NCBI GenBank assembly: GCA_046290225.1
Contig: JBKAGE010000036.1
Location: forward strand, 320,001-384,000
Direction of reading: 5' to 3'
Source: Bradymonadia bacterium
GTDB taxonomy: Bacteria; Myxococcota_A; Bradymonadia; UBA7976; UBA1532
DNA length: 64,000 nucleotides
Under the pieces are notes generated by a model that did no database searches, had not been told where the DNA came from, and saw nothing but the letters and a program-made list of their open reading frames with translations. This document shows positions 7,901 through 46,325 of the stretch, in pieces. A program made the position numbers and the translations under genes. Within the stretch, counting starts at the first letter, position 1. Each line of letters starts with the position of its first letter.

Positions 7901-8772
7901 ACCTGGCCAAAGCCCGCACGATGGCTTCGAAGAATGCAGCCCAAGCAGCTGAACAAGCCGCCGCCCAAGCAGCAGCAGAGAAGGCTGCTGCTGAGCAAGC
8001 CGCCGCGGAGAAAGCTGCTGCCGAAAAGGCAGCTGCGGACAAGGCTGCCGCTGAGAAGGCCGCTGCAGACAAAGCCGCCGCCGAAAAAGCTGCTGCCGAA
8101 AAAGCTGCCGCTGAGAAAGCTGCCGCTGAGAAAGCTGCCGCTGAGAAAGCTGCCGCAGCAAAGGCCGCTGCAGATAAAGCAGCCGCAGACAAAGCAGCCG
8201 CAGACAAAGCTGCTCAGCTCGCGGCCTCTCAGAAGGCCGCCCAAGCACAGGCCCTCAAAGACAAGCGTGCAGCTGAGAAGGCCGCGGCAGCACGTAAGCG
8301 CCGTGAGGCCGCAGAGGCGCGTAAGAAGCGAGAGGCAGAGGCCAAGGCAAAGCGAGACGCCGCCAAGGCTGCTGAGCGAAAGGCAGCCACCGAGCGTAAA
8401 GCGGAAGCCAAACGCCTCGTGGGTGTAGGCAAGGTCCACATCCGCAATGCCAAATGGTCCGAAGCGCGCAAGAGCTACTCAGCAGCGATCAAGCTCGACA
8501 AGAGCAACGCTGCTGCATATGCCGGGCTGGGCAAAGTGGCCTTCCAGGAGCAGAAGTTCTCCGAGTCGGTCCGCAACGCCGAGCGCAGCGTGAAGCTGTC
8601 TCCTCGCAACGCCGATTACCGCGTCAGCCTCGGCCTCGCGTACTTCAAACTCAAGAAGTTCGGTCAGGCCAAGAGCGCTTGGGAAAAGGCTCTCACGCTC
8701 TCACCGAGTGCCTCGACCAAGCAGACCGCCAACAAATATCTGAAGATTGTCGAGAAGCGCCTGAAGAACTGA
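4990..8772 (+). CDS. Membrane-spanning Ser/Thr kinase-like protein with acidic disordered linker, TM helix, TolA-like AAAEK repeats and C-terminal TPRs
   Basis: RYRVERKLGQGPVG, VAIKIL, HLDLKPSNIFL, PEYLAPE, SDIYAFGVLMYE. TM FFLPVLLSVAALVGGLMLYF. TPRs AYAGLGKVAF and YRVSLGLAYF. An alternative GTG start is at 5047. Confidence 0.9.
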   Translation: METCTFIDVSRATKRERVGVSESSFIGITIAQRYRVERKLGQGPVGTLYAGRHLDTDQQVAIKILNPDFVPGTPEVDAALADGRTASELAHPHLVPMLDQGVHESRFVYIVEPLLEGQSLADQLGDGPLPVEDVVRMGRGVLRGIGGLHDAGLTHLDLKPSNIFLIDEGDGRQRPVVSGVGIAHLLRLDDARKGARGRCLARPEYLAPECIKRGGQPDARSDIYAFGVLMYEALTGRPPFTGNNFSSTAKRHVYEKPLSVRLVRPQSGIPENLDALVMQCLGKAFKDRFETVAAVARALYQLVESGLGGDALRAEPSFAGPPPLALIAAGATLLDHPAVPTPEEDAGDVEQGGEAPVSADGAPTVLDVPAVSLPAAELEDTAEPEEAVKPEEAAEPEADAEEDTSTEVAETAKSPEPESPEPESPEPESPADKTSEQAEDAEASTDESESGVPDTAVSASEVDEDEVTEDEVNDSEAAGSETHEPDPQQGDTQTQAEQAPESTDEPAAATIGAAADTAPAEDDTSEDAEAASPATEDSPSENETAASEDEPSEEGLTQEVAAASPEEGSEAAEDAPSAQEASADSKSAPNASDTESGSETPEASTSTTESDADSASSAEPSAEPDTDGDPEEPAVVAAESPEKAEAEAYTEASGPAEQTAQSNTSQGQSNRGKRNKRGKKKKRGKRRSSPSLPVVPAVKADTAQEATAQKQAQASTDETVEEPQPAPEKKASEKSGPTKAAPTKAASKDKQAAAARQATEPGKGDETNQENGIHKASESGVHLDTWFVDGDSVEQLEEQQSKLSVYQVPEEKERSFFLPVLLSVAALVGGLMLYFSSSTQPSTDAPDAEATVADQTPEPVKPPGADPKPEATPPKPPANPALQIEQAARQAFEEQKWSGSQDALAERLQALRALQPTNKVASRLESRAVNRLLAESDDAQKKGDWTLAETHLRHAGLISPKNPLISTAQENLAKARTMASKNAAQAAEQAAAQAAAEKAAAEQAAAEKAAAEKAAADKAAAEKAAADKAAAEKAAAEKAAAEKAAAEKAAAEKAAAAKAAADKAAADKAAADKAAQLAASQKAAQAQALKDKRAAEKAAAARKRREAAEARKKREAEAKAKRDAAKAAERKAATERKAEAKRLVGVGKVHIRNAKWSEARKSYSAAIKLDKSNAAAYAGLGKVAFQEQKFSESVRNAERSVKLSPRNADYRVSLGLAYFKLKKFGQAKSAWEKALTLSPSASTKQTANKYLKIVEKRLKN
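6229..6279 (+). repeat. Coding 15-bp tandem repeat (SPEPE x3)
   Basis: tcgcctgaaccagag / tcgcctgagccagaa / tcgcctgagccagaa / tcgcct. Confidence 0.85.
7969..8208 (+). repeat. Coding 15-bp repeat, 16 units of AAA(E/D/A)(K/Q)
   Basis: Read from the translation; synonymous variation between units, with three identical gctgccgctgagaaa units in a row. Confidence 0.9.
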
Positions 8773-33068: not shown

Positions 33069-36000
33069 TCACGAGGACTCGGGCACGAAGCCTCGCCTCT
33101 GGGTGTTTTCGGTGATGGTCCGGGGGTTCAGACACTGCAGCAAATAGTCAGGCCCCCCGGCCTTCGTGCCGCCGCCGCTCATGGCAAAACCACCAAACGG
33201 CTGCCGACCCACGATGGCGCCGGTGATGCTGCGGTTGATGTAGAGATTGCCCACCCGATACTCCGTCCGGGCCCGGGCGATGTGCGCTGGCGATCGGCTG
33301 AACACCCCGCCGGTGAGGGCATAGGCGGTGCCGTGGGCGATCTCCAGAGCATGATCGAAATCTCGAGCCTTGATCACCGCGAGCACTGGGCCAAAGAGCT
33401 CGTCCTGCGCGATGGGATCATCTGGGGCCACGCCGGTAAAGATCGTGGGCTCAATGAAGAACCCGGCGCCCTCCCTCACCCCGCCCACACGTCGTTCGGC
33501 ATATCCATCGGCGGCCTCGATGGCTGCCTGCAGCCGATCCCGAGACTCCGTGTCGATGACTGGCCCCACATGACACGCGGGATCAGTGGGCGGCCCCACG
33601 TGCAGACTCTTCGTGGCCTCCACCAGCCGCTCCACGAAGGCGTCGTGGTGCTCTTCGAGTACGATGACCCGAGAGCACGCGCTGCACTTCTGACCTGCAA
33701 AGCCAAAGGCGCTGGACACCACACCCAACACCGCCTCATCGAGATCGGCGTCGCCGTCGACGATGATGGCGTTCTTGCCCCCCATCTCACAGACAACGCG
33801 CTTAAGGTGCATCTGGTCGGGTCCGGTGATCCCGCACTGGCGCCAGATCTCCAACCCAACGGCTCTGCTGCCGGTGAAGAGCACCGTGGCCACTCGCGGA
33901 TCGGCCACCAGAGCCGCCCCCACTTCTTCGCCATAACCCTGGATGCACTGAAACACCCCAGGGTGAGCGCCGTGCTTGCGCATCACTGAATGCACCAGCG
34001 CCGTAAATCGGGCGCCGATGACCGCTGATTGCTCTGCAGGCTTCACGATGGTGGGGTTCCCCGTGACCAGGGCCGCAGCGGTCATGCCCGTGAGGATCGC
34101 CAAGGGAAAATTCCAGGGAGCGATGACCACAGCGGGGCCTCGACCGATGTAGCCGAGGTGGTTGGTCTCTCCGGGCAGGTCCTGCATAAGCCTGGGCACG
34201 TCGAGGCGCATCATCTCCCGGCCGTAGTACTCGAGAAAATCGATGGCCTCGCACACGTCAGCATCTGCCGAGGCCCGGGCCTTGCCCACCTCTCGTAGGA
34301 TGAGCGCGATCCAGGCGTCACGCTCAGCCCGCATGTCGGCGGCGATGTCGAAGAGCACCTGTGCCCGCTCTGCGGCGGGGGTGTCCCGCCATCCAGGGAA
34401 CGCCTCCGCTGCATGATCGAGGGCTTTCTGCGCGAGGGCCACGTCGGCCACAGCCACTGTGCCCACAATTGTCTGACCGTCAGCAGGATCGATGCTTGTG
34501 AGTTGCCGGCCCGTCTCGAGCACGAAGCTGCCACCCACGAGCGAGCCGGCATGGGCTGCGCCAGTCTTCAACGGCGTCCACTGCTGGAGCGCCCGCTCGA
34601 TGGCCGCCCGTTGAGGGGCCTCGGTGAGCTCTCGAAGCGGCTCGTTGACGAACTCACCAGGGTCGGTGGCCAGAGTGCGAGGCCCCGGCACCCCTCGAAG
34701 CATCGGATCTGCGTCCACCGGCTCTGGTTTGGCCAACAGCGTCGCAGTGTCGACGGCCTCGACAAAACCCATGCGTAGCCAGCTCTGGTTGCTGGTGTTC
34801 TCGAGCAGACGCCGCACGAGGTAGGCCATACCAGGAATCAAATCACCCACGGGGGCATAGACCCGCACTCGATAGCCGAGGTTGACGCAGGCGGCCTTTA
34901 TGGGCTCAGCCATGCCATAGAGGCACTGCACCTCGAAGGCCTCTTTTGGGAGCTTCTCTCGCTCGGCGATGGCCATGGCGTGGGCGAGGCTGCGCACGTT
35001 GTGGCTGCCGATGGCGGTCTTGAGGTGTTTGTGGTTCTTGAGCAGTAACTCGGCGCAACGCTCAAAGCACGCGTCGGTGTCGCCCTTGTGCAACCACACC
35101 GGCGAGGCCCAGCCTTCTTGATGGGCCTTCACGGTCTCGTAGTCCCAGTAGGCCCCCTTCACCAGTCGAATGGTGATCCGCTTGCCGCTGCGCTTGGCCC
35201 ACTGCACGAGGTCACGGGTGTCGGCCTCGGCAGAGCGCAGATAGGCCTGCACCACCACCCCGGCATCGGACCACCCCTCAAGGCTGGGATCGGACATCAC
35301 CTGTTTGAAGATGGCGTACGTGAGATCTTTGTAGGCGAACTGCTCCATGTCGACGTTGAGGAACACCCCCCGCCGTCTCGCCGCCTGAAACAGCGGCAGC
35401 AGCCGAGCGCTGGCCCGCTCGACGCTGTGGTCGAAGGCCTCGGCGCTCAGCTGGGAGTACATGGCGCTCACCTTCACCGAGACGTTCACTCTGGGGATGA
35501 GCCCCTTGTCGTCTCGCTCGAGCGTCTCGTCCTGGGTCCAATCCGCGCAGGCGTCGGCGAGGCCTTCAATCAGGGCGAGATACTTTGCGGCATACGCCTC
35601 GGCTTCTGCCTCACTGACGGTGGCCTCGCCCAGCAAATCGACGGTGAAGCCCTGCCTGGCATCACGGAGCTGTTTCAGCGTGGACAGCGCGCTCTCGGCG
35701 TCGGTCCCCACGATGAACCGCTTTGCCATACCTTCGAGATTCTTGGCGATCTGGCCTGCTGCGACCTTGGTGGCCATCTTGCCCAGCCCGGCGCCCTTGA
35801 GGGCCATCTTGATGACTGCAGGGGGCTTCACCCCGGGCCGCAGCAGGTATTCCTGAATGTGCCGCGCGATCTCTTCGGGGCTCTGCAGCACGGGGAAGAC
35901 GTCGACAAACCGGAACATCTCGGTTTTGAAGCCTTCGTCCTTCATGGCCCACTCAAGGACCTGGCCGCTCCACCACGCTTTGTTGAACAGGCCTGGGGTC

Positions 36001-36089
36001 TCCCCCTTCATCTCGGCGAAGAGCTGCTCGCCGATGGCCTGGATCCGCGACTCCAGGTTGGCTTTTGAACGAAAAAGCACCGCAGCCAC
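33069..36089 (-). CDS. putA: Bifunctional proline dehydrogenase / P5C dehydrogenase (short type, no DNA-binding domain)
   Basis: VDLLGE, RLVKGAYWD, RRLLENTSN; ALDH motifs PWNFP, EMGGKN, GQKCSAC, ELFGP. Confidence 0.96.
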   Translation of the reverse strand: MAAVLFRSKANLESRIQAIGEQLFAEMKGETPGLFNKAWWSGQVLEWAMKDEGFKTEMFRFVDVFPVLQSPEEIARHIQEYLLRPGVKPPAVIKMALKGAGLGKMATKVAAGQIAKNLEGMAKRFIVGTDAESALSTLKQLRDARQGFTVDLLGEATVSEAEAEAYAAKYLALIEGLADACADWTQDETLERDDKGLIPRVNVSVKVSAMYSQLSAEAFDHSVERASARLLPLFQAARRRGVFLNVDMEQFAYKDLTYAIFKQVMSDPSLEGWSDAGVVVQAYLRSAEADTRDLVQWAKRSGKRITIRLVKGAYWDYETVKAHQEGWASPVWLHKGDTDACFERCAELLLKNHKHLKTAIGSHNVRSLAHAMAIAEREKLPKEAFEVQCLYGMAEPIKAACVNLGYRVRVYAPVGDLIPGMAYLVRRLLENTSNQSWLRMGFVEAVDTATLLAKPEPVDADPMLRGVPGPRTLATDPGEFVNEPLRELTEAPQRAAIERALQQWTPLKTGAAHAGSLVGGSFVLETGRQLTSIDPADGQTIVGTVAVADVALAQKALDHAAEAFPGWRDTPAAERAQVLFDIAADMRAERDAWIALILREVGKARASADADVCEAIDFLEYYGREMMRLDVPRLMQDLPGETNHLGYIGRGPAVVIAPWNFPLAILTGMTAAALVTGNPTIVKPAEQSAVIGARFTALVHSVMRKHGAHPGVFQCIQGYGEEVGAALVADPRVATVLFTGSRAVGLEIWRQCGITGPDQMHLKRVVCEMGGKNAIIVDGDADLDEAVLGVVSSAFGFAGQKCSACSRVIVLEEHHDAFVERLVEATKSLHVGPPTDPACHVGPVIDTESRDRLQAAIEAADGYAERRVGGVREGAGFFIEPTIFTGVAPDDPIAQDELFGPVLAVIKARDFDHALEIAHGTAYALTGGVFSRSPAHIARARTEYRVGNLYINRSITGAIVGRQPFGGFAMSGGGTKAGGPDYLLQCLNPRTITENTQRRGFVPESS

Positions 36090-36396
36090 CTCCAGTGAGC
36101 GCCTCGACGGCCACCAACCGCGAGCGCTCGGTTAGATGTGTCTCTTTCCCACTGGAGATGATAGCGCACTCCGAACAAAATCGAGTGATGGTGGATGGAT
36201 ATGGTGGTTGATGAAGCGGGCCTTGGACATGCTGACTTGCTCTGAGCCGCCCTCCCACCACCCTAAACATCTAGAACTTAAAAACATCACCATATAGAAC
36301 GCCATAACACCGAAATAAAACGCACTGTTTTGCTGGCAGGGTGTGATCTATCTCTCGAGCGCTCTGGATGGTTTCAAAATGCCTGTGATTTCAGGG

Positions 36397-36728
36397 GTCG
36401 CTCCGCTGGCAAGAGAGTTTCGGGCACGGGCAAGGGCACGGGCACGGGCACGAGTTGATTCGGGTGTGGACCCGTGGTCCTGCATGATTCAGGACGAAGG
36501 TTGTCATTGAAGCTGAGACGGTACGCTTCGAAATGGCCTGAGAGTTCAGATCTTGGGGTGTATGGACCTCAAAACCTCCACTGAGGAGAGCGTGGGGCCG
36601 AGCAAAGCCTCCAACATCACAGACCCACGAGCGGAGTCATGCTGGGCCACGGGTCCACACCCGAATCAACTCGTGCCCGTGCCCGTGCCCTTGCCCGTGC
36701 CCGAAAACTGATCTGCGAGCGAAGCGAG
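36397..36728. mobile_element. Non-autonomous MITE/REPIN-like element, copy 1 (~95-bp inverted arms with GGGCAC x5, 143-bp core)
   Basis: Arms 36397-36490 and 36634-36728 are near-perfect inverted repeats. A homologous copy lies at 41360-41794. Mobility is inferred, not shown. Confidence 0.75.
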
Positions 36729-36804
36729 GATCTCTTCCCCTCCCATGTGACACCCTGACCACAACCGGACTCTCCCCCAACACAAGCACAACACCGAGCC
36801 CTCC

Positions 36805-37443
36805 ATGCCCCAGGCCCCCGAGCACGCCGACATCGCCTTCGCCCACGCCCTCGCCAATGGCGAGCGCGAGGCCGTGGTGCGTTTCGAGGCGCAGTATCGA
36901 CGGGTTATCCGGCATGCCCTCGGCGTGGCCATTCGGCGGTGGAAGCCCGAATCACCGGTGGAGCCCGAAGACTTCGTCCAGGACTTCATCGGCTTTTTGT
37001 TCACCGACAGAGGCCGTCGCCTGCGGAGCTTCGAGGGCCGTTCTTCCTTTGGTGGGTGGCTCTACACCGTAGCGTTGAGGCACTTCCAACGCGCCCTGTC
37101 CAAGCTCGCGAAGGACAGGCGCTCGGAGGTCGTCCTCACCCGGCTGCCCGAGCGCGAGGAGCGGCGACCTGACCACCTCGCAGCGGTGGCTGCCGACGCA
37201 GAGCGCTTGCGGGCGGTGGTGGGGCAGTTGCCAGAGCGTGATCGGCTTTATGTGCGCCTGTTCTATGTCGAAGGCCTCAACGCCAGCGAAGTGGCGCGCA
37301 CCCTCGGCAAGCGACCCTCAGCAGTGCGCATGCACAAGATGAGACTCCTGGAACGCCTGCGGGTGATGCTCGACGAGCCCCCGGAGGAGACCACCTCGAC
37401 GAGACCCGAGGCCACACGCCGTCGGGTCGGGGAGGATCCATGA
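36805..37443 (+). CDS. ECF RNA polymerase sigma-70 factor
   Basis: EDFVQD..FEGRSSFGGWLYTVA (region 2); LPERDR..EGLNASEVARTLG (region 4). Confidence 0.92.
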   Translation: MPQAPEHADIAFAHALANGEREAVVRFEAQYRRVIRHALGVAIRRWKPESPVEPEDFVQDFIGFLFTDRGRRLRSFEGRSSFGGWLYTVALRHFQRALSKLAKDRRSEVVLTRLPEREERRPDHLAAVAADAERLRAVVGQLPERDRLYVRLFYVEGLNASEVARTLGKRPSAVRMHKMRLLERLRVMLDEPPEETTSTRPEATRRRVGEDP

Positions 37444-38543
37444 CCCACGAGCGACTGGAAGCTCGACTCAGAGTGCTCGACATGCAGTGGGACTCTGTGG
37501 GCGAGCACCTCGACGAGGCCGCGCTGCTCGAGATCGTCGGCGGGCGGGCGCCCGAGCCCCATGAAGCGGCCCACCTGGCCAGCTGCGACGAATGCACAGA
37601 GCTGCTCATCGTGCTCGGTGTTGGCCTCGAAGCCCTCGCTGCGGACATCCCCGAGGCCGCGGCCATGGTGCCGTTGGGCAACGCAGAGACACCCGTTGAG
37701 CCCCTGACAGAGGCACCCCTCGAGCATGCTGCTGGCCAGACGCCAGAATCACCTCCTGTATCTGGGGGCAAGCTCCTCTATCTCCCTCGGCCTGTGAAGT
37801 GGCTGATGATGGTGGCCATCGTCGCTGGGGTGGCCTTTGCAGGACACTCCACGTTGTCACCCTCTGCAACGGTACAAAATCTCGCGACGGCGACCCGAGA
37901 CCTGCCCACCCTCGAAGCGGCCCCAGCGCCATCAACCCAGATCGCCCCAGTACAACTCGCCCCAGTACAACTCGCCCCAGTACAACTCGCCACAGCACCC
38001 GCTCGACCTCTTCGTCCTGTGGAGGAGGTCGCCTCTCTGCCACATCCTCCGGTGCCTCGAGTCAAACGCTCCCTGGCCCTTCCCCCGCTTTCTCAACGCT
38101 CAGGTGTCGAAGATCTCACCCCAGCACCGCCTTCAGGCTGGTCTCCGCCTCCTGCGGTTGAGACGCCCAAAGTGATTGCCGAGGTACAGGCGCCTCGGCG
38201 TCGGATACGCAGAGCTCGCCGAGTCGCTCCAGATGTCGTCGAGGACACACCATTTCGGCGTCCGGGGCCCTCTGCACCCATCTCGGGCCGTCCCAGAGCC
38301 TTTGGCCAGCTGCAGTTGATCAGCAAGCCCCCCTCACGGGTCTACATCGACGGGCGAGATCGGGGCTGGACCCCCATCGTGAATCTGCGGCTGCCCGAAG
38401 GCCCCCACGACATCCGGCTGGTGTACTCGCACCCTCGGGCACGACAGGCCGAGGAGACATTCCGGGTGGTGATTCCGCCAGATAAAACCTGGCGGATCTC
38501 GCGGGACAACCTCGGCCCTGCTCGTGGCGGTGTGGGGCCCTGA
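37440..38543 (+). CDS. Zinc-binding anti-sigma factor (ZAS) with TM helix, Pro-rich linker and PEGA domain
   Basis: ATGA overlap with the sigma gene; HLASCDEC (HxxxCxxC); TM helix; SKPPSRVYIDG..GWTP..LPEGPH. Confidence 0.85.
   Translation: MTHERLEARLRVLDMQWDSVGEHLDEAALLEIVGGRAPEPHEAAHLASCDECTELLIVLGVGLEALAADIPEAAAMVPLGNAETPVEPLTEAPLEHAAGQTPESPPVSGGKLLYLPRPVKWLMMVAIVAGVAFAGHSTLSPSATVQNLATATRDLPTLEAAPAPSTQIAPVQLAPVQLAPVQLATAPARPLRPVEEVASLPHPPVPRVKRSLALPPLSQRSGVEDLTPAPPSGWSPPPAVETPKVIAEVQAPRRRIRRARRVAPDVVEDTPFRRPGPSAPISGRPRAFGQLQLISKPPSRVYIDGRDRGWTPIVNLRLPEGPHDIRLVYSHPRARQAEETFRVVIPPDKTWRISRDNLGPARGGVGP
37944..37988 (+). repeat. Perfect coding 15-bp tandem repeat x3 (APVQL)
   Basis: gccccagtacaactc x3. 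Confidence 0.9.
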
Positions 38544-38711
38544 CGCCCCGGGCGGAAGGGGCACTGGTCAGGACGCTTGTCACCAGCCACATCCCTGGGG
38601 CGGGCCCCGTCGCCTTGATGCACCCGCAGGCCTTTGGCATTGTTTGTGAAGTTCGAGAGGCTCTCGGTACATGTACCGATCCGAGCCGCTTCCCCTTCCA
38701 AGGAGTTCACA

Positions 38712-41306
38712 GTGCGTCGATCTGCATCGAGCCCCCTCCTCCCGGCGCTTCTCGCCGCGGCCACCACCCTGGCCGTCTGCCCCACGGCGAACGCCAACGT
38801 GACGCCCTTCGGAGAGCGGGTCAACGAGGCCATCGAGCGTGGCCTGACCTACCTGAGGAACATCCAACAGGGGAACGGCCGCTTCGGCGACAACAACACC
38901 TCTGGCGGGCCCACGGGCCTGGCGCTCCTAGCGTTCTTGGAGAAGCGGGCCAGCGCTGACTGGAACGCCGCTCACGTGGGCTATGAGAACTCCAGCCCTG
39001 ATGATCAGCAGCGCATCCGCAACGGGGTGCGCCACTGCATCGACAACGTGCCGGGCTTCCGAGGCGGCAACCCCTACTCCTACACCACGGGCTCATGCCT
39101 CATGGCCCTGAGCCTCTATCTCACCACCGGCGGCCCCAATGACGTAGGGGCAGGCGCCGCGGTGAACACCGCGGTGAACAACGCCGTGAATGCCCTGCGC
39201 AACACCCAGGGCAGCCAGGGCTCCAACCAGGGTGGCTGGAACTACACCACGCCCGACAGCAATGGCGATCTCTCCACGACGCAGTTCTCCATGGCAGGCC
39301 TCGCCGCGGCGGTCTCGGTGCGCCCGGACGCCGGCGACACCCTGCCCCTGGCGGTGAGCTTCGTCACCAACGCCAAGAACGGTGACGGCGGCCACAAGTA
39401 CCGCAGCGGAGGCAACTACAACAGCACCTCGGCGATGTCGGCCTCGGGCCTCTGGACCTACCGCCTCGCGGGCCTGCCCACGAGCGACGATCGGGTGCAG
39501 TCCGCCCTTGGCTGGCTGCAGAGCAACTATCGCTACAACAGCCTGATCACCATCAACGGTTGGCAGAGCCAGTACTACTACCTCTGGGCCGCCGCGAAGG
39601 GCTTCGAGGTGACCCCCGATGATGGCAATGGGGCAGCGATCTACGCCGACAACATCGGCGGCGTGCGCGATCCTGCCGGCGACGGGTTCCCCGAAGAAGC
39701 TCCGAACTGGTACTACGACTTCGCCTGGTACCTCATGGACGTACAGGCAGGGAACGGCAGCTGGGGCAGCAACCCCGGCAGCTGGGACGTCACCGCAGCA
39801 ACCTCGTACTCCATCCTCGTGCTGCAGCGCTCCCTCGGCGGGGTCTGCATCCTCGACGAGGACATGGACGACTTCTGCGACACCCTCGAAGACAACTGCC
39901 CCGGCATCCCCAACCCTGATCAGGCCGATCAAGACGGCGACGGCATCGGCGATGTCTGCGACAACTGTCCCGAGGAGGCCAACGTCGATCAGGTCGATGA
40001 GGACGCCGACGGCATCGGTGACGCCTGCGACGACATCATCTGTGTGCCCGACGGCAACCCAGATCTCTGCGACGGGCTGGACAACGACTGCGACGGCGAG
40101 GTGGACGAAGGTCCCGACGGCGCCGCTCCGGTGGCCCCGGGCACCTGCGCAACGGGCCTGCCGGGCCTCTGCGCCACGGGTCAGCGCGCCTGCATCGACG
40201 GCGAGGTGGTCTGTGAGCCCGACAACGAGCCCACGGACGACATCTGCGATCTCTACGACAACGACTGCGACGGCATGATCGATGAGGGGCTCTACAACGT
40301 CTGCGGCACCTGCGGCGAGGTCCCTCAGGAAGAGTGCAATGGCATCGACGACGACTGCGACGGCACCATCGACGAGGGTGGCGATCTCTGCGACATCGGC
40401 GCCACCTGCGCTCAGGGCGACTGCCGCACCAACTGCCCGGATCGTGAGTGTCTCAACGGCGGTGAGTTCTGTGATCCTGATCTGCTGCTCTGTGGCGAGG
40501 CCTGTGAGCTGGTGGAGTGTGGCTTCGGTCTCGCCTGTGATCCGCAAACGAATCAGTGCTTCGACCCCTGCGCTGGCGTGAGCTGTGGCGACGGCGAGCG
40601 CTGCTGGCTCGGCGACTGCGTGCCCAATGACTGTGAGTACACGGGCTGTGAAGCGGGCAGCATCTGCGACGGCAACGAGTGTGTGCCTGATCCCTGCGCA
40701 GCGGCGGAGTGCGAAGAAGGCGAGTTCTGTCGTGGTGGTCAGTGTATCCCCAGCTGCGCTCAGGTCAGCTGCACCTTCGGTGAGGTCTGTGTTGATGGCG
40801 CCTGTGTAGAGGATCCGTGTGGCGGGGTCACCTGCCCCGACGGCGAGGCCTGCATCGACGGCTTCTGCGAGGCTGATCCCTGTGAGGGTGTGAACGATTG
40901 TGGTGAGAACCAGTTCTGCCTGAACGGCGAGTGCATCTTCGATCCCTGCACCGACGTGGCCTGTCCTCCGGGGCAAACCTGTGAGGTGCGCCAGGGGACG
41001 GCCCAGTGCATCCGCATCGTTCAGCCCGAGCCGATGATGCCCCCTGGCCCCGACATGGGGGTCGGCGGCGCCGGTGGCATGGGCGGTATGGGCGGCGCTG
41101 GTGGATTCGGTGCTGGCCCTGGCGGTGCGGGTGGCACCGGCGGTGGTGGCATCACGCCTCCGCCCCCGGCACCTGACTCCGGCGTGGACGATGGCGGCTC
41201 TGGCGACGAGGCTGGGGGCTGCAACTGTGATGCTTCGACGGGCGGTGGTGCCTCCGGGCTCTGGCTGCTGGTCTTGGGCCTGGGGCTGTTGCGTCGGCGG
41301 CGCTGA
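38712..41306 (+). CDS. Surface protein: prenyltransferase/terpene-cyclase-like alpha-alpha barrel + TSP3 + MopE-like + Cys-rich repeats + MYXO-CTERM
   Basis: AGGAG RBS and signal peptide; [50 protein letters not shown] x3; [20 protein letters not shown]. Confidence 0.88.
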
Positions 41307-41337
41307 GCTCTTCTATTGGGCTCTATCTGCAGCTCAG
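41303..41337. terminator. Possible terminator hairpin
   Basis: ctgagct...agctcag inverted repeat at the stop of the MYXO-CTERM gene; no U tract. Confidence 0.3.
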
Positions 41338-41359
41338 AATAAGTCTGACAGGTGTAGGA

Positions 41360-41794
41360 CTCGCTTCGCTCGCAGAGAGAGTTTTTCGGGCACGGGCACG
41401 GGCACGGGCACGGGCACGAGTTTCACGGGTGTGGACAGTGCAGCCTGAGGCTGCATGTCTTGGAGCGAGTGTAGGCCTGCGTAGCCGGCCGGAGGGAGCG
41501 GAAAGACACCCGGAGGGCTGTCCACTGGTCAACCTGACCCATGGCCCTGCATGACTCCGCTCGTGGGTGTGTGATGGTGGAGGCTCCACTCGGCCCCATG
41601 TGTCTCTCATTGGAGGTTTTGACCTCCATACACCCCAAGACCTGAACTCTCAGGTCGTTCTGAAACGCATCATTCCAGCGTCAGTCGTAGCCTTTGCCCT
41701 GAGTCATGCAGGGCCACGGGTTCACACCCGTAAAACTCGTGCCCGTGCCCGTGCCCGTGCCCGTGCCCGAAAACTGATCTGCGAGCGAAGCGAG
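41360..41794. mobile_element. MITE/REPIN-like element, copy 2 (core inverted relative to copy 1; 102-bp insertion in the left arm)
   Basis: Same arms as copy 1. Core 41558-41700 is the reverse complement of 36491-36633 (about 110/143 identical by hand count, ungapped). Confidence 0.75.
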
Positions 41795-41829
41795 CCCACC
41801 CCCATCACACCAACAACGTAGAAGTCTAC

Positions 41830-42624
41830 TCAATCCAGCTTGAGCGCCCGCAACTCAGTCGGCCTCATCCAAGCACCCGCACCATTCGGGAGAATGATGC
41901 CCACCCAGCCCTCTTCCTCCCCACGCACTTGCACCTTCACCCCAGCGTACACCTCGGCCACCGTTTTGTAGTTCGACTCCGGGCCCACCTTGGCCAGGGC
42001 CTTGTCGGCGATCACGATGGCGTAGGTGTTCTGGCTCACCACCAACTCGCGACCCAGGATCAAGCCCCCGGACGCCAGAGCGCCGAGGCCGACCAGCACC
42101 GCCGAGAACATCAACGCAGTGCGGCGACCCCCCACGGCATAGCGAATGGCCAACAGCAGCGCGAAGAGTGTCGTCCAGAACACAGCCGCCATGATCGTCA
42201 GCGTGCTCGGAGACAACGCCATGAAGAGATCAGTGCTCGTATCTGACTGACCAGGCACGATGCGTTTTTGATCGCTGCCCTCAGCGCCGATGCGTTCGAG
42301 CACCTGATCGGTGACCACCTTGAGGTTGTGTTGCGCGTCGGCATCTTCGGGGCGCAACAGCAAGGCTTGCTCGAAGGCCCACACGGCCTTGCCCAGATCC
42401 CCTGCCCCAGCGTGGGCGTTGCCGAGATTGAAGTACACATCAGCATTGCGGACCCCGGCGTCGATCACCTGACCATAGGTGGCGATGGCCTGCCTGTGTT
42501 TGCCTTGCCAGAACGCCTCGTTGCCCGCCTTGAAGTCTTCGACAGGGCCGCCGTGGGCCAGAGTGGCTGTCAGCCCGAGGGCCAGGGTGATGATGCACGC
42601 TTTGAGCACAGCGCTTTTGCTCAT
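41830..42624 (-). CDS. batE: BatE-like TPR + TM + SH3 protein
   Basis: VYFNLGNA..FEQALLLRP..AQHNL; two TM helices; SH3b-like GWVGI..GAWM; operon context. Confidence 0.85.
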   Translation of the reverse strand: MSKSAVLKACIITLALGLTATLAHGGPVEDFKAGNEAFWQGKHRQAIATYGQVIDAGVRNADVYFNLGNAHAGAGDLGKAVWAFEQALLLRPEDADAQHNLKVVTDQVLERIGAEGSDQKRIVPGQSDTSTDLFMALSPSTLTIMAAVFWTTLFALLLAIRYAVGGRRTALMFSAVLVGLGALASGGLILGRELVVSQNTYAIVIADKALAKVGPESNYKTVAEVYAGVKVQVRGEEEGWVGIILPNGAGAWMRPTELRALKLD

Positions 42625-44405
42625 GACAGCTCCTGCTCGGCCTGCTCGATGAGACCTCGGGCGCGGCCCAGGGCTTCTTGGAGCTCTCCAGAGCGGCTCC
42701 CTGTGGGGGCGAATCGCGCGAAGTCACAGTTCTCGAGCTCGTCAGCGAAGGCCTTTGCGAGGGCATCGCTCAGACCGTGTGCCTTCAGGCTCGCCATCAG
42801 CTGGGGCCGCGTGAGACCTTGGACGGGGGTACCGAAGCGCTGGCCCAGGTAGCCATTGAGCGCCTTGGCAATGCCCATGAAGCCCTCAGCCCCAGAGGCC
42901 GAGGCAATGCCCCCAAGCACCTTCTGAGCATCACCTGCGGCGGCCTGAACCGCCCGAGCCCCTGCCCCCTCACCGTGACGTGCTGCCATCCGCTCTCGGA
43001 TGATCAGCACCCCAAACAACATCGGTGGCAACAAGACGAAGGTAACGAAGAGTGGAGAGGCGTACATTGGGAGCCCCTCAGTGGCCAGGCTACTCTCGCC
43101 TCTGATGGTGCGCAGGCCAGCGCCAGGCTCTGTGGTGGTCTGAGCATCAGAGTGGGTGGCCACATCGTCCACTTCACCGCTCACCTCGATCGACAGCGGA
43201 CGAGTACGGGCGATGCGGTACTTGCCAGACACCGGGTCGAAGTAGGGCAGCTCGATCTGTGGAATCTTCAGCTTGCCCGTTCTCGTGGGCCGCAGCAACC
43301 ACGTCGCCGTGCGGGTGCCCTGCAGCTGATCACGGTGGACGTTGGCGTCCTGGTTCTTGGTCGGATCGAAGACCTTGAAGCCCGGCAGATCAGGCAGCTC
43401 CAGCTCCGGCACGTTCTGCAGCAGACCCTTCACGCGGGTGAGGATCGTCAGTTGCACACCCTGGTTGCCCTTGATGCGTGTGCGATCCACCTTGGCGATC
43501 AGGTTGATGCGCCCCACAGCAGGCCCTGAGAACCCCTTGGGGCGCTTGGCCGAGGGCAGCGGCTTGACCTCGAGCTTCAGCTCGGGGGCCGTCCGAGTGA
43601 TGGCGCGGCTGCCGCGACCAAACCCCGCTCGGGCATCCATCGACACTTCCACCTCGGGCAGGCTCAGCTGGCCGGCTTTGAGGGGAAACAGCACATACCG
43701 ATTGCTCTGCTGCCGCACATAGGATCGACCGTTCACGGTCACCGTCCGCGCCCGCTCGTTGCGACCGTTCACCGGCTGATTCCAGAAGCCCTCGAGGTTG
43801 ATGTTGCTCGACCCGGTGGGGTTGATGCTGAGGCGGCGATTCACATAGAAGACCAGGCTGGCGTTCACCTGCTCGCCGAGCCAGGGATTCTCCTTGTCGA
43901 CCTCCCATCGCAAGAAGACCAGCTCGTCGGTCCCGTCAGATCCAGTCTTGCTGTCTCCGAAGATGCCCTGTGGTGAAGGTGGTGCCGGACCGTCGCCGGT
44001 GACTTTGATGGTGACAGGCTGACTCTTGTGCACCTGCCCACCGGACTTCAGAGAAAACGCGCCGATGGTGAGATCGCCCACCCCTTCGGGGCGCATGGTG
44101 AGATCGATGGTGGTCTGTCGCTGACCGCTGATGCCGTCGAACCGCATCTGGCGACTCTGATTGGTGACGCTCCACTGCCCCAGAGGAGGCATCTCCACGT
44201 CACCGCCGCCGCGACCGCCCTGACGCACGACGACCCGCAGACGCATGGTCTGTCCATAGGCGATGGAGCGGGCGCTCACCTGTACCTGAATGGAGGGCTT
44301 CTGGGCGCTGCCCTTCGGCTGGGCCATGGCGAAGCTGCACAGGCCGAGGCACGCCGACAGGGCGAGGGCCCACACTGACACAGATCTGAGCGCAGAGGTG
44401 CTCAC
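42621..44405 (-). CDS. batD: BatD family protein
   Basis: Signal peptide, repeated Ig-like units (LFPLKAGQLSLP, LPYFDP..Y), TM helix, C-terminal CDFARFAP. Confidence 0.88.
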   Translation of the reverse strand: MSTSALRSVSVWALALSACLGLCSFAMAQPKGSAQKPSIQVQVSARSIAYGQTMRLRVVVRQGGRGGGDVEMPPLGQWSVTNQSRQMRFDGISGQRQTTIDLTMRPEGVGDLTIGAFSLKSGGQVHKSQPVTIKVTGDGPAPPSPQGIFGDSKTGSDGTDELVFLRWEVDKENPWLGEQVNASLVFYVNRRLSINPTGSSNINLEGFWNQPVNGRNERARTVTVNGRSYVRQQSNRYVLFPLKAGQLSLPEVEVSMDARAGFGRGSRAITRTAPELKLEVKPLPSAKRPKGFSGPAVGRINLIAKVDRTRIKGNQGVQLTILTRVKGLLQNVPELELPDLPGFKVFDPTKNQDANVHRDQLQGTRTATWLLRPTRTGKLKIPQIELPYFDPVSGKYRIARTRPLSIEVSGEVDDVATHSDAQTTTEPGAGLRTIRGESSLATEGLPMYASPLFVTFVLLPPMLFGVLIIRERMAARHGEGAGARAVQAAAGDAQKVLGGIASASGAEGFMGIAKALNGYLGQRFGTPVQGLTRPQLMASLKAHGLSDALAKAFADELENCDFARFAPTGSRSGELQEALGRARGLIEQAEQELS

Positions 44406-44408
44406 AGC

Positions 44409-46325
44409 TCAGTAGTCCTCCATCTGGGGCACTGAAGGCAGGTTGCGCAACATCTTCTCGAGCTGGGGGTTCCCTGGCTGCTCGTCGAGGGCGTCGATGA
44501 GTTGTTGTACGTCCACCTGCTCTTCATCTTTGGGCTGCTGTTCTTGGTCCTGTTGCTCATCCTGATCCTGATCTTGTTGCTGATCCTGATCCTGTTGCTG
44601 GTCCTGATCCTGTTGGTCCTGCTGCTCATCCTGATCTTGTTGATCCTGATTTTGCTGCTGGTCCTGGTTCTGATCCTGGCCAGACTCCTGGGGCGGCTTG
44701 AAGGTGACGTCGTAGGTGTTCTCTTTCTCTGCGGTGGTCACCCTGGCGAGGAACACACGCTCGTCGTCGGCCTCTTTGAAGCTGAGCATCTGGCCTTGCT
44801 GGTTCTGGCGAGCTTTGCGCAGCATGGTCTTGCCGTCTACATCGTAGAGCTCGACGTCGAGCAGCGCCCGCTCGGTGTCGTGGACCACGGTGAACTCCAT
44901 GGCCTCGTCGGCGGGGACCGTGAACTTGAACCAGTCAGCATCCCCGACACACGACTTCAGGCCACGAACGGCTTCTCCTTCGACGGCTGTGGCAGCATCG
45001 GGTACGTCGTTCTCTTCGTGGGCATCGTCGGCGGGGCACGGCGGCGCCACCTCGACCTTCACGGTGTAGTTCAGCTCACCACGACCTTTGCCCATGATGC
45101 GAAACGCCCAGGTGCCTTCTTCGTCGACGATGCGCACCCCGAGGCGGGCCTTGCCCTTGACGAACTTCGAGACGTTGGCCAGTCGCATGCCCGCCTCGGT
45201 AGGCTGGTACAGCAGAACCTCGGCCTCTCGCTCTGCCCCCCAGGCCTCGTCGACCTCGCCGCTCACGGTGACGAAGAGCCCCTCGTTGACCCCCACCGGC
45301 ACGGCGAACCAGTCCTCGTCGTCGGGACAAAGAATGTACTCCGCAGGCTGGGGCTCCTCGCCCTGACCCGGAGGCGCCCCAGGTTGGCCCTGGGCCTGTG
45401 TGGGAGGCAGCGGTGGCTTGGCCTGGAACAACGAGTCGTCTTCCTCGTGGGGATCATCCCGCTCGGCGCAGGGGGGCAGCGCCTCGAGGGTGATGCCATA
45501 GCTGATCTCGGCCTTGCCGGGACCGGCGAGCTGCACCAGCCAGGTCCCCGAGGTGGGCAGCTCCGCCACGCCGATACGCGCCTCACCGCCCTCAAGCTTC
45601 ACAGTGCGCATGGGCGCATTGCCGTTGGGGGCGTAGAGGTTCACCACCGCATCGCGGGTGTCGTCTTCTTCGGCCTCGATCGAATGGTTGATCACCACCC
45701 GGAGAGCGCCACCGGCCTGAGCCTCCACGGCGTACCAGTCCTCGTCCGCAGGGCACAGCAGCCGATCTTTCTGGGGGCCTTCCTGCTCGGCGTCCTGTGG
45801 AGGTGCCTCGAGGGGCTTTGCCTGGCCCCGGGCGTCGTCGGGCTCGTGATCATCGTCCCGGACCGAGCACGGCGGATGCAGCTTGAACCACGCCAGCTCG
45901 AGGTTCCAACGCGCGTCTTCGTCCTCGGGGTGGATTTTGAGGACCTCCCCAAAGAGACGATGGGCCTTGGACCAGTCTTCTTTCTCAAGGGCCAGCAGGC
46001 CCCGGGCGAACGCGATGCGGGCCTTGAGGTCGAGCAGCTCTGGGGGTTTGGGATCTTCGGCCTCGATGAGAGCATCGAGGGTCTGCCGCCACGCCAAATC
46101 GAGTGAGGTGCTCGCGGCCTCGCCGTTGTCCGTGGCCATTTGAGCGAGGCCCCGGGCGAAGTGCACTTCTGGGGCATCGTCGTCCACGCGGCCGAGGGCG
46201 TCGATGGCCCCCTGGCCATCCTGTGCAGCGAGGCGCCGCCCCGCCTCGTCCACATCTCCATCGGCGCAGACAAAGGGCCCGAAACCCACAAGCCAGAGCG
46301 CAGTCAACGCGATCTTGAGCCTCAC
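44409..46325 (-). CDS. BatC-like TPR protein with three inserted PPC-like repeats and a Q/D-rich tail
   Basis: DEDARWNLELA TPR; three C..DD.HE.(N/D)D..C..D.DW(Y/F) units; QD-rich tail ending MEDY; sits between batB and batD. Confidence 0.75.
   Translation of the reverse strand: MRLKIALTALWLVGFGPFVCADGDVDEAGRRLAAQDGQGAIDALGRVDDDAPEVHFARGLAQMATDNGEAASTSLDLAWRQTLDALIEAEDPKPPELLDLKARIAFARGLLALEKEDWSKAHRLFGEVLKIHPEDEDARWNLELAWFKLHPPCSVRDDDHEPDDARGQAKPLEAPPQDAEQEGPQKDRLLCPADEDWYAVEAQAGGALRVVINHSIEAEEDDTRDAVVNLYAPNGNAPMRTVKLEGGEARIGVAELPTSGTWLVQLAGPGKAEISYGITLEALPPCAERDDPHEEDDSLFQAKPPLPPTQAQGQPGAPPGQGEEPQPAEYILCPDDEDWFAVPVGVNEGLFVTVSGEVDEAWGAEREAEVLLYQPTEAGMRLANVSKFVKGKARLGVRIVDEEGTWAFRIMGKGRGELNYTVKVEVAPPCPADDAHEENDVPDAATAVEGEAVRGLKSCVGDADWFKFTVPADEAMEFTVVHDTERALLDVELYDVDGKTMLRKARQNQQGQMLSFKEADDERVFLARVTTAEKENTYDVTFKPPQESGQDQNQDQQQNQDQQDQDEQQDQQDQDQQQDQDQQQDQDQDEQQDQEQQPKDEEQVDVQQLIDALDEQPGNPQLEKMLRNLPSVPQMEDY
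44535..44685 (-). repeat. Low-complexity Q/D coding repeat
   Basis: QDQNQDQQQNQDQQDQDEQQDQQDQDQQQ... Confidence 0.8.

Follow-up and report, generated by a model that had tools for sequence, protein, structure and literature searches.

Gene-less long-inverted-repeat elements of a Bradymonadia genome: matched arms, mosaic cores and a silent-site halo in neighbouring genes

Introduction

DNA segments that lie between inverted repeats and are found in two orientations are well known from recombinase-driven systems such as Hin/Gin, Fim and the shufflons. Replication is linked to a G+T (keto) strand skew, with G exceeding C and T exceeding A at silent sites, that is attributed to deamination of single-stranded DNA. 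MITEs are recognised by terminal inverted repeats, a target-site duplication and an autonomous transposase partner between the same ends. REPINs or REP doublets, which are linked to a RAYT (Y1) transposase, are described in the accessible text of PMC3116915 as extragenic inverted hairpin doublets, present in many copies and with compensatory changes between the two sides. In the S23p intervening sequences of 23S rRNA genes, a PF05635/TIGR02436 ORF lies in a stem loop with short tandem repeats adjoining, and the function of PF05635 proteins is called an open question in the available sections of PMC4990558. Template switching at quasi-palindromes, according to the available part of PMC8604942, homogenises arms, extends them outward and inverts spacers, all without a recombinase.

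Here we describe a family of long-inverted-repeat elements from a Bradymonadia bacterium, two copies of which lie in a stretch of 64,000 nt (the window). In behaviour the family resembles a REPIN or a MITE and in architecture an S23p intervening sequence, and it departs from each in a defining respect. In contrast to Hin/Gin, Fim and the shufflons, no recombinase is linked to the copies, the window family lacks fixed asymmetric ends, and the core has no shown gene or promoter function. The skew observed in neighbouring genes has the same sense as the replication-linked one (G>C, T>A), but is local (~500 nt), centred on the repeat and reversed across it. The inverted repeats are terminal, as in a MITE, but neither a target-site duplication nor an autonomous transposase between the same ends was found; between the arms lie only one four-helix-bundle gene and one DDE transposase with ends of its own and a 9-nt duplication. 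All the features listed above for REPINs other than the linked RAYT are shared, but the window copies are longer (330-430 nt) than the elements described in the accessible text of PMC3116915 and contain hexamer arrays and modules, no PF01797 RAYT is present in the assembly, and the gene within the arms encodes a four-helix bundle. That gene belongs to the S23p protein family and lies in a stem loop in a single copy, on contig C72; in contrast to the intervening sequences in the sections of PMC4990558 at hand, however, the elements are intergenic and outside rRNA genes, and the window copies, which lie between protein genes, have no trace of the gene. The arms behave as in template switching, but the inversions reported in the part of PMC8604942 available concern yeast genes and spacers a few bases long, whereas here the spacers are 120-140 nt, the repeats form a family and there is exchange between loci.

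Results

Copy A (36397-36728) is a gene-less long-inverted-repeat element flanked by the divergent putA and ECF sigma genes. Its left tip (36394-36421, + strand) has a mini-hairpin of the GC-TCC-GC type followed by a GAGAG spacer and a T run, and is succeeded by a (GGGCAC)5 array (36422-36451, +) that by inspection fits the G3N3 pattern of a putative quadruplex. The left arm (36418-36501, +) shows 90% complementarity to the right arm (36623-36706, -), the non-coding core between them (36502-36622, +) is in the forward orientation, and the right tip (36700-36728, -) belongs to the GATCAG spacer class. Copy B (41360-41794) lies between convergent genes for a MYXO-CTERM protein and a TPR protein, the latter presumably BatE-like. 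It comprises a left tip, (GGGCAC)5 array and variable segment (41360-41436, +), an extra 102-nt module in the left arm (41437-41538, +), a core that with the inner arm ends occupies 41558-41700 in reverse orientation (-), and a right arm with a GATCAG-class tip (41720-41794, -). The arms are 84 nt long in copy A and 54 nt in copy B, where the 102-nt module breaks the left arm; the longest perfect inverted matches are 60 and 41 nt, respectively, and both copies fold into long hairpins (z = -16.7 for A and -17.7 for B, each against 100 shuffles). No Rfam match was found in the window, cores included. The MYXO-CTERM gene (38634-41306), which comes after the ECF sigma gene and a gene for a PEGA-domain protein, encodes an 890-aa protein that is cyclase-like in its N-terminal region and has cysteine-rich repeats. 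Ordinary coding tandem repeats are present at 7927-8243 and 44518-44691 (15-nt Ala/Lys-rich units; a Gln/Asp-rich linker).

An earlier note on this DNA had inferred from the two copies that the core inverts between its arms, given that the cores are opposed while the outer tips point the same way. The opposed cores are confirmed: 36491-36633 agrees with the reverse complement of 41558-41700 at 110/143 positions without gaps, compared with 41/143 in the same orientation. The right tips are indeed identical over 29 nt. The left tips, however, are not of one type, since copy A has the CGCTCCGCTGG hairpin type and copy B the CTCGCTTCGCTCGC type; all that they have in common is the GAGAG-T-run spacer, a form that prevails at either end across all copies. 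A read check over 34000-44000 (one run, share 0.06, contigs only) gave the stretch in fragments, too little to bear on core orientation, with no strand-changing joint among them.

Searching the genome (8.58 Mb, 64% GC) gave 151 arm matches, some of them by chance, that form 49 inward pairs. The core is present in 45 of these, 22 times forward and 23 times reverse. From the outside in, an arm consists of a GC-rich mini-hairpin, a GAGAG or GATCAG spacer, a T run, a (GGGCAC)n array (n=5 in 73/89 arms), a variable segment, optional 102-nt modules and an inner stem. The module flanks the core on one side or the other (4 and 4, n=45) but in no copy on both, and the median perfect inverted match is 48 nt long. 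The copies favour convergent spacers (18/38 vs 284/1546), and core orientation shows no relation to the neighbouring genes (7 vs 8).

Tip classes were tabulated for the 37 core-bearing pairs with intact tips, leaving out the 4/49 pairs that lack a core and the 8/45 with an interrupted tip. There were 29 S/S, 3 T/T, 3 S/T and 2 T/S pairs, that is, 32 with the same class at both ends and five mixed, including both window copies. The mixed-tip elements have cores in either orientation (3 and 2), the GATCAG spacer is a minority class (11/74 ends), and no distal variant is bound to one side of the copies. Tip types are thus not distinct side classes in the window family, an outcome that the earlier note had itself named as counting against inversion. 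Fixed left and right classes would make every copy mixed; with only 5/37 mixed, the pair has to be explained otherwise. It is explained by the orientation of the whole element together with arm exchange and variable tips, and is by itself no demonstration of a flipping core.

The earlier remark that no target-site duplication is seen was borne out, in that the longest flanking direct repeat averages 5.48 nt vs 5.25 in shuffled sequence (40 pairs; 33/500 shuffles as high), a comparison in which the element ends are blurred and to which no close relative contributes an empty site. Both putA and the sigma gene are present at 9/14 loci from relatives, all outside the genus, and the element is absent from the spacer in all 9. 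A composite transposon carrying the sigma cassette was considered and rejected, since the sigma gene adjoins putA without elements in those 9 loci and the TPR gene comes after on the same contig in genome G002. Arm and insertion-end patterns had no match in the public collections searched, and a 22-nt arm pattern was found in 1/40 relatives, in a different layout. The same-family genome G019 carries GGGCAC and GGTCAA arrays, also in a different layout (L018-L042, even ids), with G-rich codons in the gene ends adjoining them.

At contig ends of the genome (G000), an element is inserted only in GGGCAC arrays, with junctions on the left in 14 cases and on the right in 10 (e.g. C72:1-89 and C47:1-82). 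This recently spread element is identical at all ends and always in one orientation, is bordered by GG on either side, and has weak subterminal repeats. It resembles IS110/IS1111-type targeting as outlined in the accessible part of PMC11187229; its body is unassembled, and the assembly has no match to the IS110 domain PF02371. A DDE_Tnp_1 element, with its own terminal repeats and the 9-nt duplication, lies inside one core (L240:359-1537; G000:C50:55561-57125). Two contig-end copies (G000, C17:22891-23052 and C76:112613-112774; 94% identical overall) have the same core and different arm variants, as a result either of recent core conversion or of assembly. Sequences that look tRNA-like by eye lie inward of a solo arm (G000:C35:240000-240471).

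We compared the two arms of each copy with arms drawn across copies. Identity was higher within copies for the variable arm segment (0.754 vs 0.613; 49 pairs, 0/10000 shuffles) and for the tip (0.669 vs 0.514; 40 pairs, 0/10000 shuffles), and the T run was identical at both ends in 24/39 pairs vs 10.6 in shuffles (0/10000). Tip class was equal at both ends in 32/37 (Fisher p=0.02) and hairpin class in 20/24 (p=0.002), p-values that are overstated, as are the others given here, since the copies are kin. The match extends 7-12 nt outside the tip hairpin (0.44 vs 0.32; 23 pairs, 7/10000) and is gone at 13-16 nt. Arms of one copy are therefore more alike than arms across copies, as in template switching, and the matched variants are copy-specific. 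The cores all differ (median identity 75%, maximum 95%) and are mosaic, with linkage falling with distance (rho -0.24; 41 cores, after 4/45 with large indels were left out; 0/2000 permutations). Arm matching and mosaic cores are the trace that arm-to-arm copying and exchange between loci would leave. Because such copying erases any side marker, flips within the window family are neither shown nor excluded.

A sister long-repeat family that includes the second four-helix-bundle gene of the genome (C77) is more informative on this point. It has 39 pairs and a 135-nt core, and its arms are asymmetric, with an inner module in two forms, X and Y; fixed asymmetry, absent from the outer ends of the window family, is found only in these inner modules. 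With cores aligned, the 36 usable pairs (3/39 were left out) comprise 23 X/Y, 8 X/X, 5 Y/X and no Y/Y (p=0.003, or 0.009 once two identical cores are merged). Two Y/X copies have cores with 96-97% identity to X/Y cores, and two Y/X copies show a joint swap of both arm modules. Next to the core, the perfect repeat spans just 1-25 nt, which makes a flip by the assembler unlikely in this family. The Y/X copies are likely to represent real inversions, few in number and with crossover points that vary, to judge from these alignments, though kinship of the copies and possible conversion of X/X copies from another locus weaken this reading. The general idea of core inversion in the earlier note survives through the arm exchange within copies, the 102-nt module on either side of the core and the reciprocal swaps of the sister family, not through the pair on which it was built.

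Could the same counts arise if cores never flip in place and every pattern, within copies and across them, comes from one-way gene conversion of arms and of whole copies? Arm matching and mosaic cores require nothing more, and X/X copies that could serve as substrates exist (8/36). From the margins, however, independent conversion should give ~3 Y/Y and ~2 Y/X copies, where 0 and 5 are seen, and it does not account for the joint swap of both modules in two copies. We consider conversion alone unlikely. A core that is actively and often inverted by a site-specific recombinase acting in trans would agree with the reciprocal swaps, with the mixed-tip copies in both core orientations and the 102-nt module on either side, and with the tyrosine and serine recombinases encoded in the genome. 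Yet no recombinase lies beside or inside any copy (the nearest is 2.6 kb off, past a flagellin gene), the orientation of cores ignores the neighbouring genes, 23/28 asymmetric sister copies keep one arrangement, and the swaps take in different arm modules. The last two points fit rare events with variable crossover points, and regular inversion in trans is very improbable. Elsewhere in the genome, three flagellin genes lie interspersed with two genes for tyrosine-recombinase-domain proteins (L239:3040-9716; G000:C78:534039-540715), possibly a flagellin variation locus.

Genes next to the arms differ from other genes at silent sites, as read on the GGGCAC strand with crude ORF calls. For 63 genes that read towards an arm, G+T at fourfold sites of the final 90 nt is 0.75 vs 0.47 in 1041 control genes, and this halo fades over ~500 nt to reach the baseline beyond ~600 nt. 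In 36 genes reading away from an arm the value is 0.675 vs 0.54. G+T is higher near than far in 60/63 towards genes and 28/36 away genes (controls 586/1039 and 634/1381). The skew reverses across the element. C drops and G climbs at fourfold sites while GC content stays constant; at twofold sites of the towards genes T goes up from 0.27 to 0.54 and A down from 0.225 to 0.13, with smaller shifts in the away genes. Adenine mutagenesis of the DGR type was rejected as the cause, since C is lost more than A. Conversely, an arm lies downstream of 24 of the 61 most G+T-rich gene ends, compared with 70/5302 genes overall.

In the window, the halo is seen in the last 150 nt of the TPR gene (41830-41980, -; 22/27 fourfold sites G/T vs 46/90 beyond 300 nt) and of the MYXO-CTERM gene (41156-41306, +; 22/37 vs 150/402 beyond 300 nt). 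It is weak at the 5´ end of the sigma gene (36805-36955, +; 19/29 vs 41/73 on the G strand of the arm) and not detected in putA (12/25 vs 277/515). Orthologs were compared for five genes, of which four besides the TPR gene were picked by function; 6 truncated orthologs were left out. The result was clear in 3/5, namely the TPR gene (0.82 in the last 40 codons vs 0.39 pooled in 21 orthologs, range 0.11-0.59), an AlaS-like gene (0/17 orthologs as high) and a carboxyltransferase gene (0/20), and weak in the other two (7/20 and 5/18 orthologs as high). Solo arms have a halo on both sides, with 0.66 vs 0.52 on the 3´ side (9/10 genes), and the sister family has a weaker one (0.58 vs 0.48; 47/61 genes). 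A third repeat family of 67 loci, mostly unpaired and palindromic (e.g. C75:41887-42062), has no outward halo; on the 5´ side its flank is poor in G+T, as read on the motif strand (0.415 vs 0.51; 18 genes). Foreign four-helix-bundle loci have no flank skew. In relative G019, 12 loci hint at a halo in a comparison that lacks a proper control. The halo likely arises from neighbouring DNA that is often left single-stranded.

That these patterns are instead artefacts of assembly or, for the halo, reflect selection acting at RNA ends or insertion at sites that were skewed beforehand is highly improbable. The assembly does break inside arms (the 24 contig-end junctions), the copies prefer convergent spacers, and towards genes show a stronger halo than away genes. 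But the long perfect inverted matches and the copy-specific variants speak against an artefact, the skew reverses from one side of the element to the other and extends to the away genes, and ortholog gene ends are unskewed on average.

The earlier note had named a four-helix-bundle gene among those that a copy might enclose, and one pair does so (G000:C72:82296-83332). It encloses a TIGR02436/PF05635 gene, above the cut-off, between modules of the 102-nt type, and the module in copy B is 92-95% identical to the four modules around this gene. With one copy of the family enclosing the gene, the window copies are read as gene-less forms of this cassette, although they have no remnant of it and the core of copy A bears no likeness to it; there are ~48 gene-less paired copies to the one with a gene. 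Among the best 80 relatives of the C72 gene, less 8 with short flanks, 44/72 loci have flanking inverted repeats, often of GGGNNN hexamers, and 7/72 direct ones. The sections of PMC8700078 available make no mention of repeats around the four-helix-bundle gene, and neither the cassette nor the halo is described in the literature searched, which mostly lies outside subscription journals.

None of the candidate mobilisers sought adjoins an arm. RAYT (PF01797) has 0 matches in the 99.4% complete assembly, in which multi-copy elements can stay unassembled, and the one GIY-YIG (a 625-aa frame) and two reverse transcriptase matches in the assembly lie apart from any arm. Two reverse-transcriptase genes are adjacent and convergent at G000:C79:178718-180977. 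The four-helix-bundle protein might itself drive copying of the element through a single-stranded intermediate, with arm matching, flips and halo as by-products: both long-repeat families have a copy with this gene and both have halos, the third repeat family has no outward halo, no RAYT was found, and 21/80 of the best relatives come from one genome. On the other hand, an inverted repeat lies within 600 nt of just 1/21 copies in that genome, and the family has no known catalytic activity according to the available sections of PMC4990558. We regard this role as decidedly doubtful.

Discussion

Passive repair of hairpins by the host, with no programmed switch or dedicated invertase, probably accounts for the matched arms, the halo and what are likely rare flips. 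In this model, the arms would extrude as hairpins or cruciforms, perhaps with G-quadruplexes, at which replication forks stall or break. Template switching or break repair may then copy one arm onto the other, and the available part of PMC8604942 reports that template switching homogenises arms and inverts spacers, though much shorter ones than here. The same repair could extend the repeat by a few bases outward, borrow patches from other copies and sometimes invert the spacer, giving an occasional core flip, while the exposed single strand would collect C-to-T and A-to-G changes and so give rise to the halo. The tips of copies A and B likely match through arm swapping and copying by ordinary host repair. 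Flip, break and single-strand exposure are all deduced from sequence patterns and not directly observed. Three observations run against the model: the constant GC content at fourfold sites is unexpected from deamination alone, a halo 3´ of solo arms would not follow from forks stalling at a hairpin, and foreign four-helix-bundle loci lack flank skew. Blending of repeat copies in short-read assembly could also weaken it.

A broader reading, for which we see a slim chance, is that four-helix-bundle cassettes and their empty shells are transposase-free mobile DNA processed as a single strand, in which arm rebuilding, core flips and a codon-rewriting halo would go together and the small pentameric four-helix-bundle protein would be the driver.

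The present analysis adds the refutation of the tip argument, the statistics for arm matching and mosaic cores, the reciprocal swaps of the sister copies and a halo shared by both four-helix-bundle families. The window pair is unremarkable by itself, but the genome is an unusually good test bed, with two families of ~40-50 copies each and one gene-bearing copy in each, and the function of PF05635 can be tested with a marked empty copy. Arm matching, mosaic cores and reciprocal swaps can be counted and indicate how repeats of this kind are maintained. A non-coding repeat is associated with altered silent sites in ~100 neighbouring genes; should mutation be its cause, the repeats act as local mutators and can be dated by their halo.
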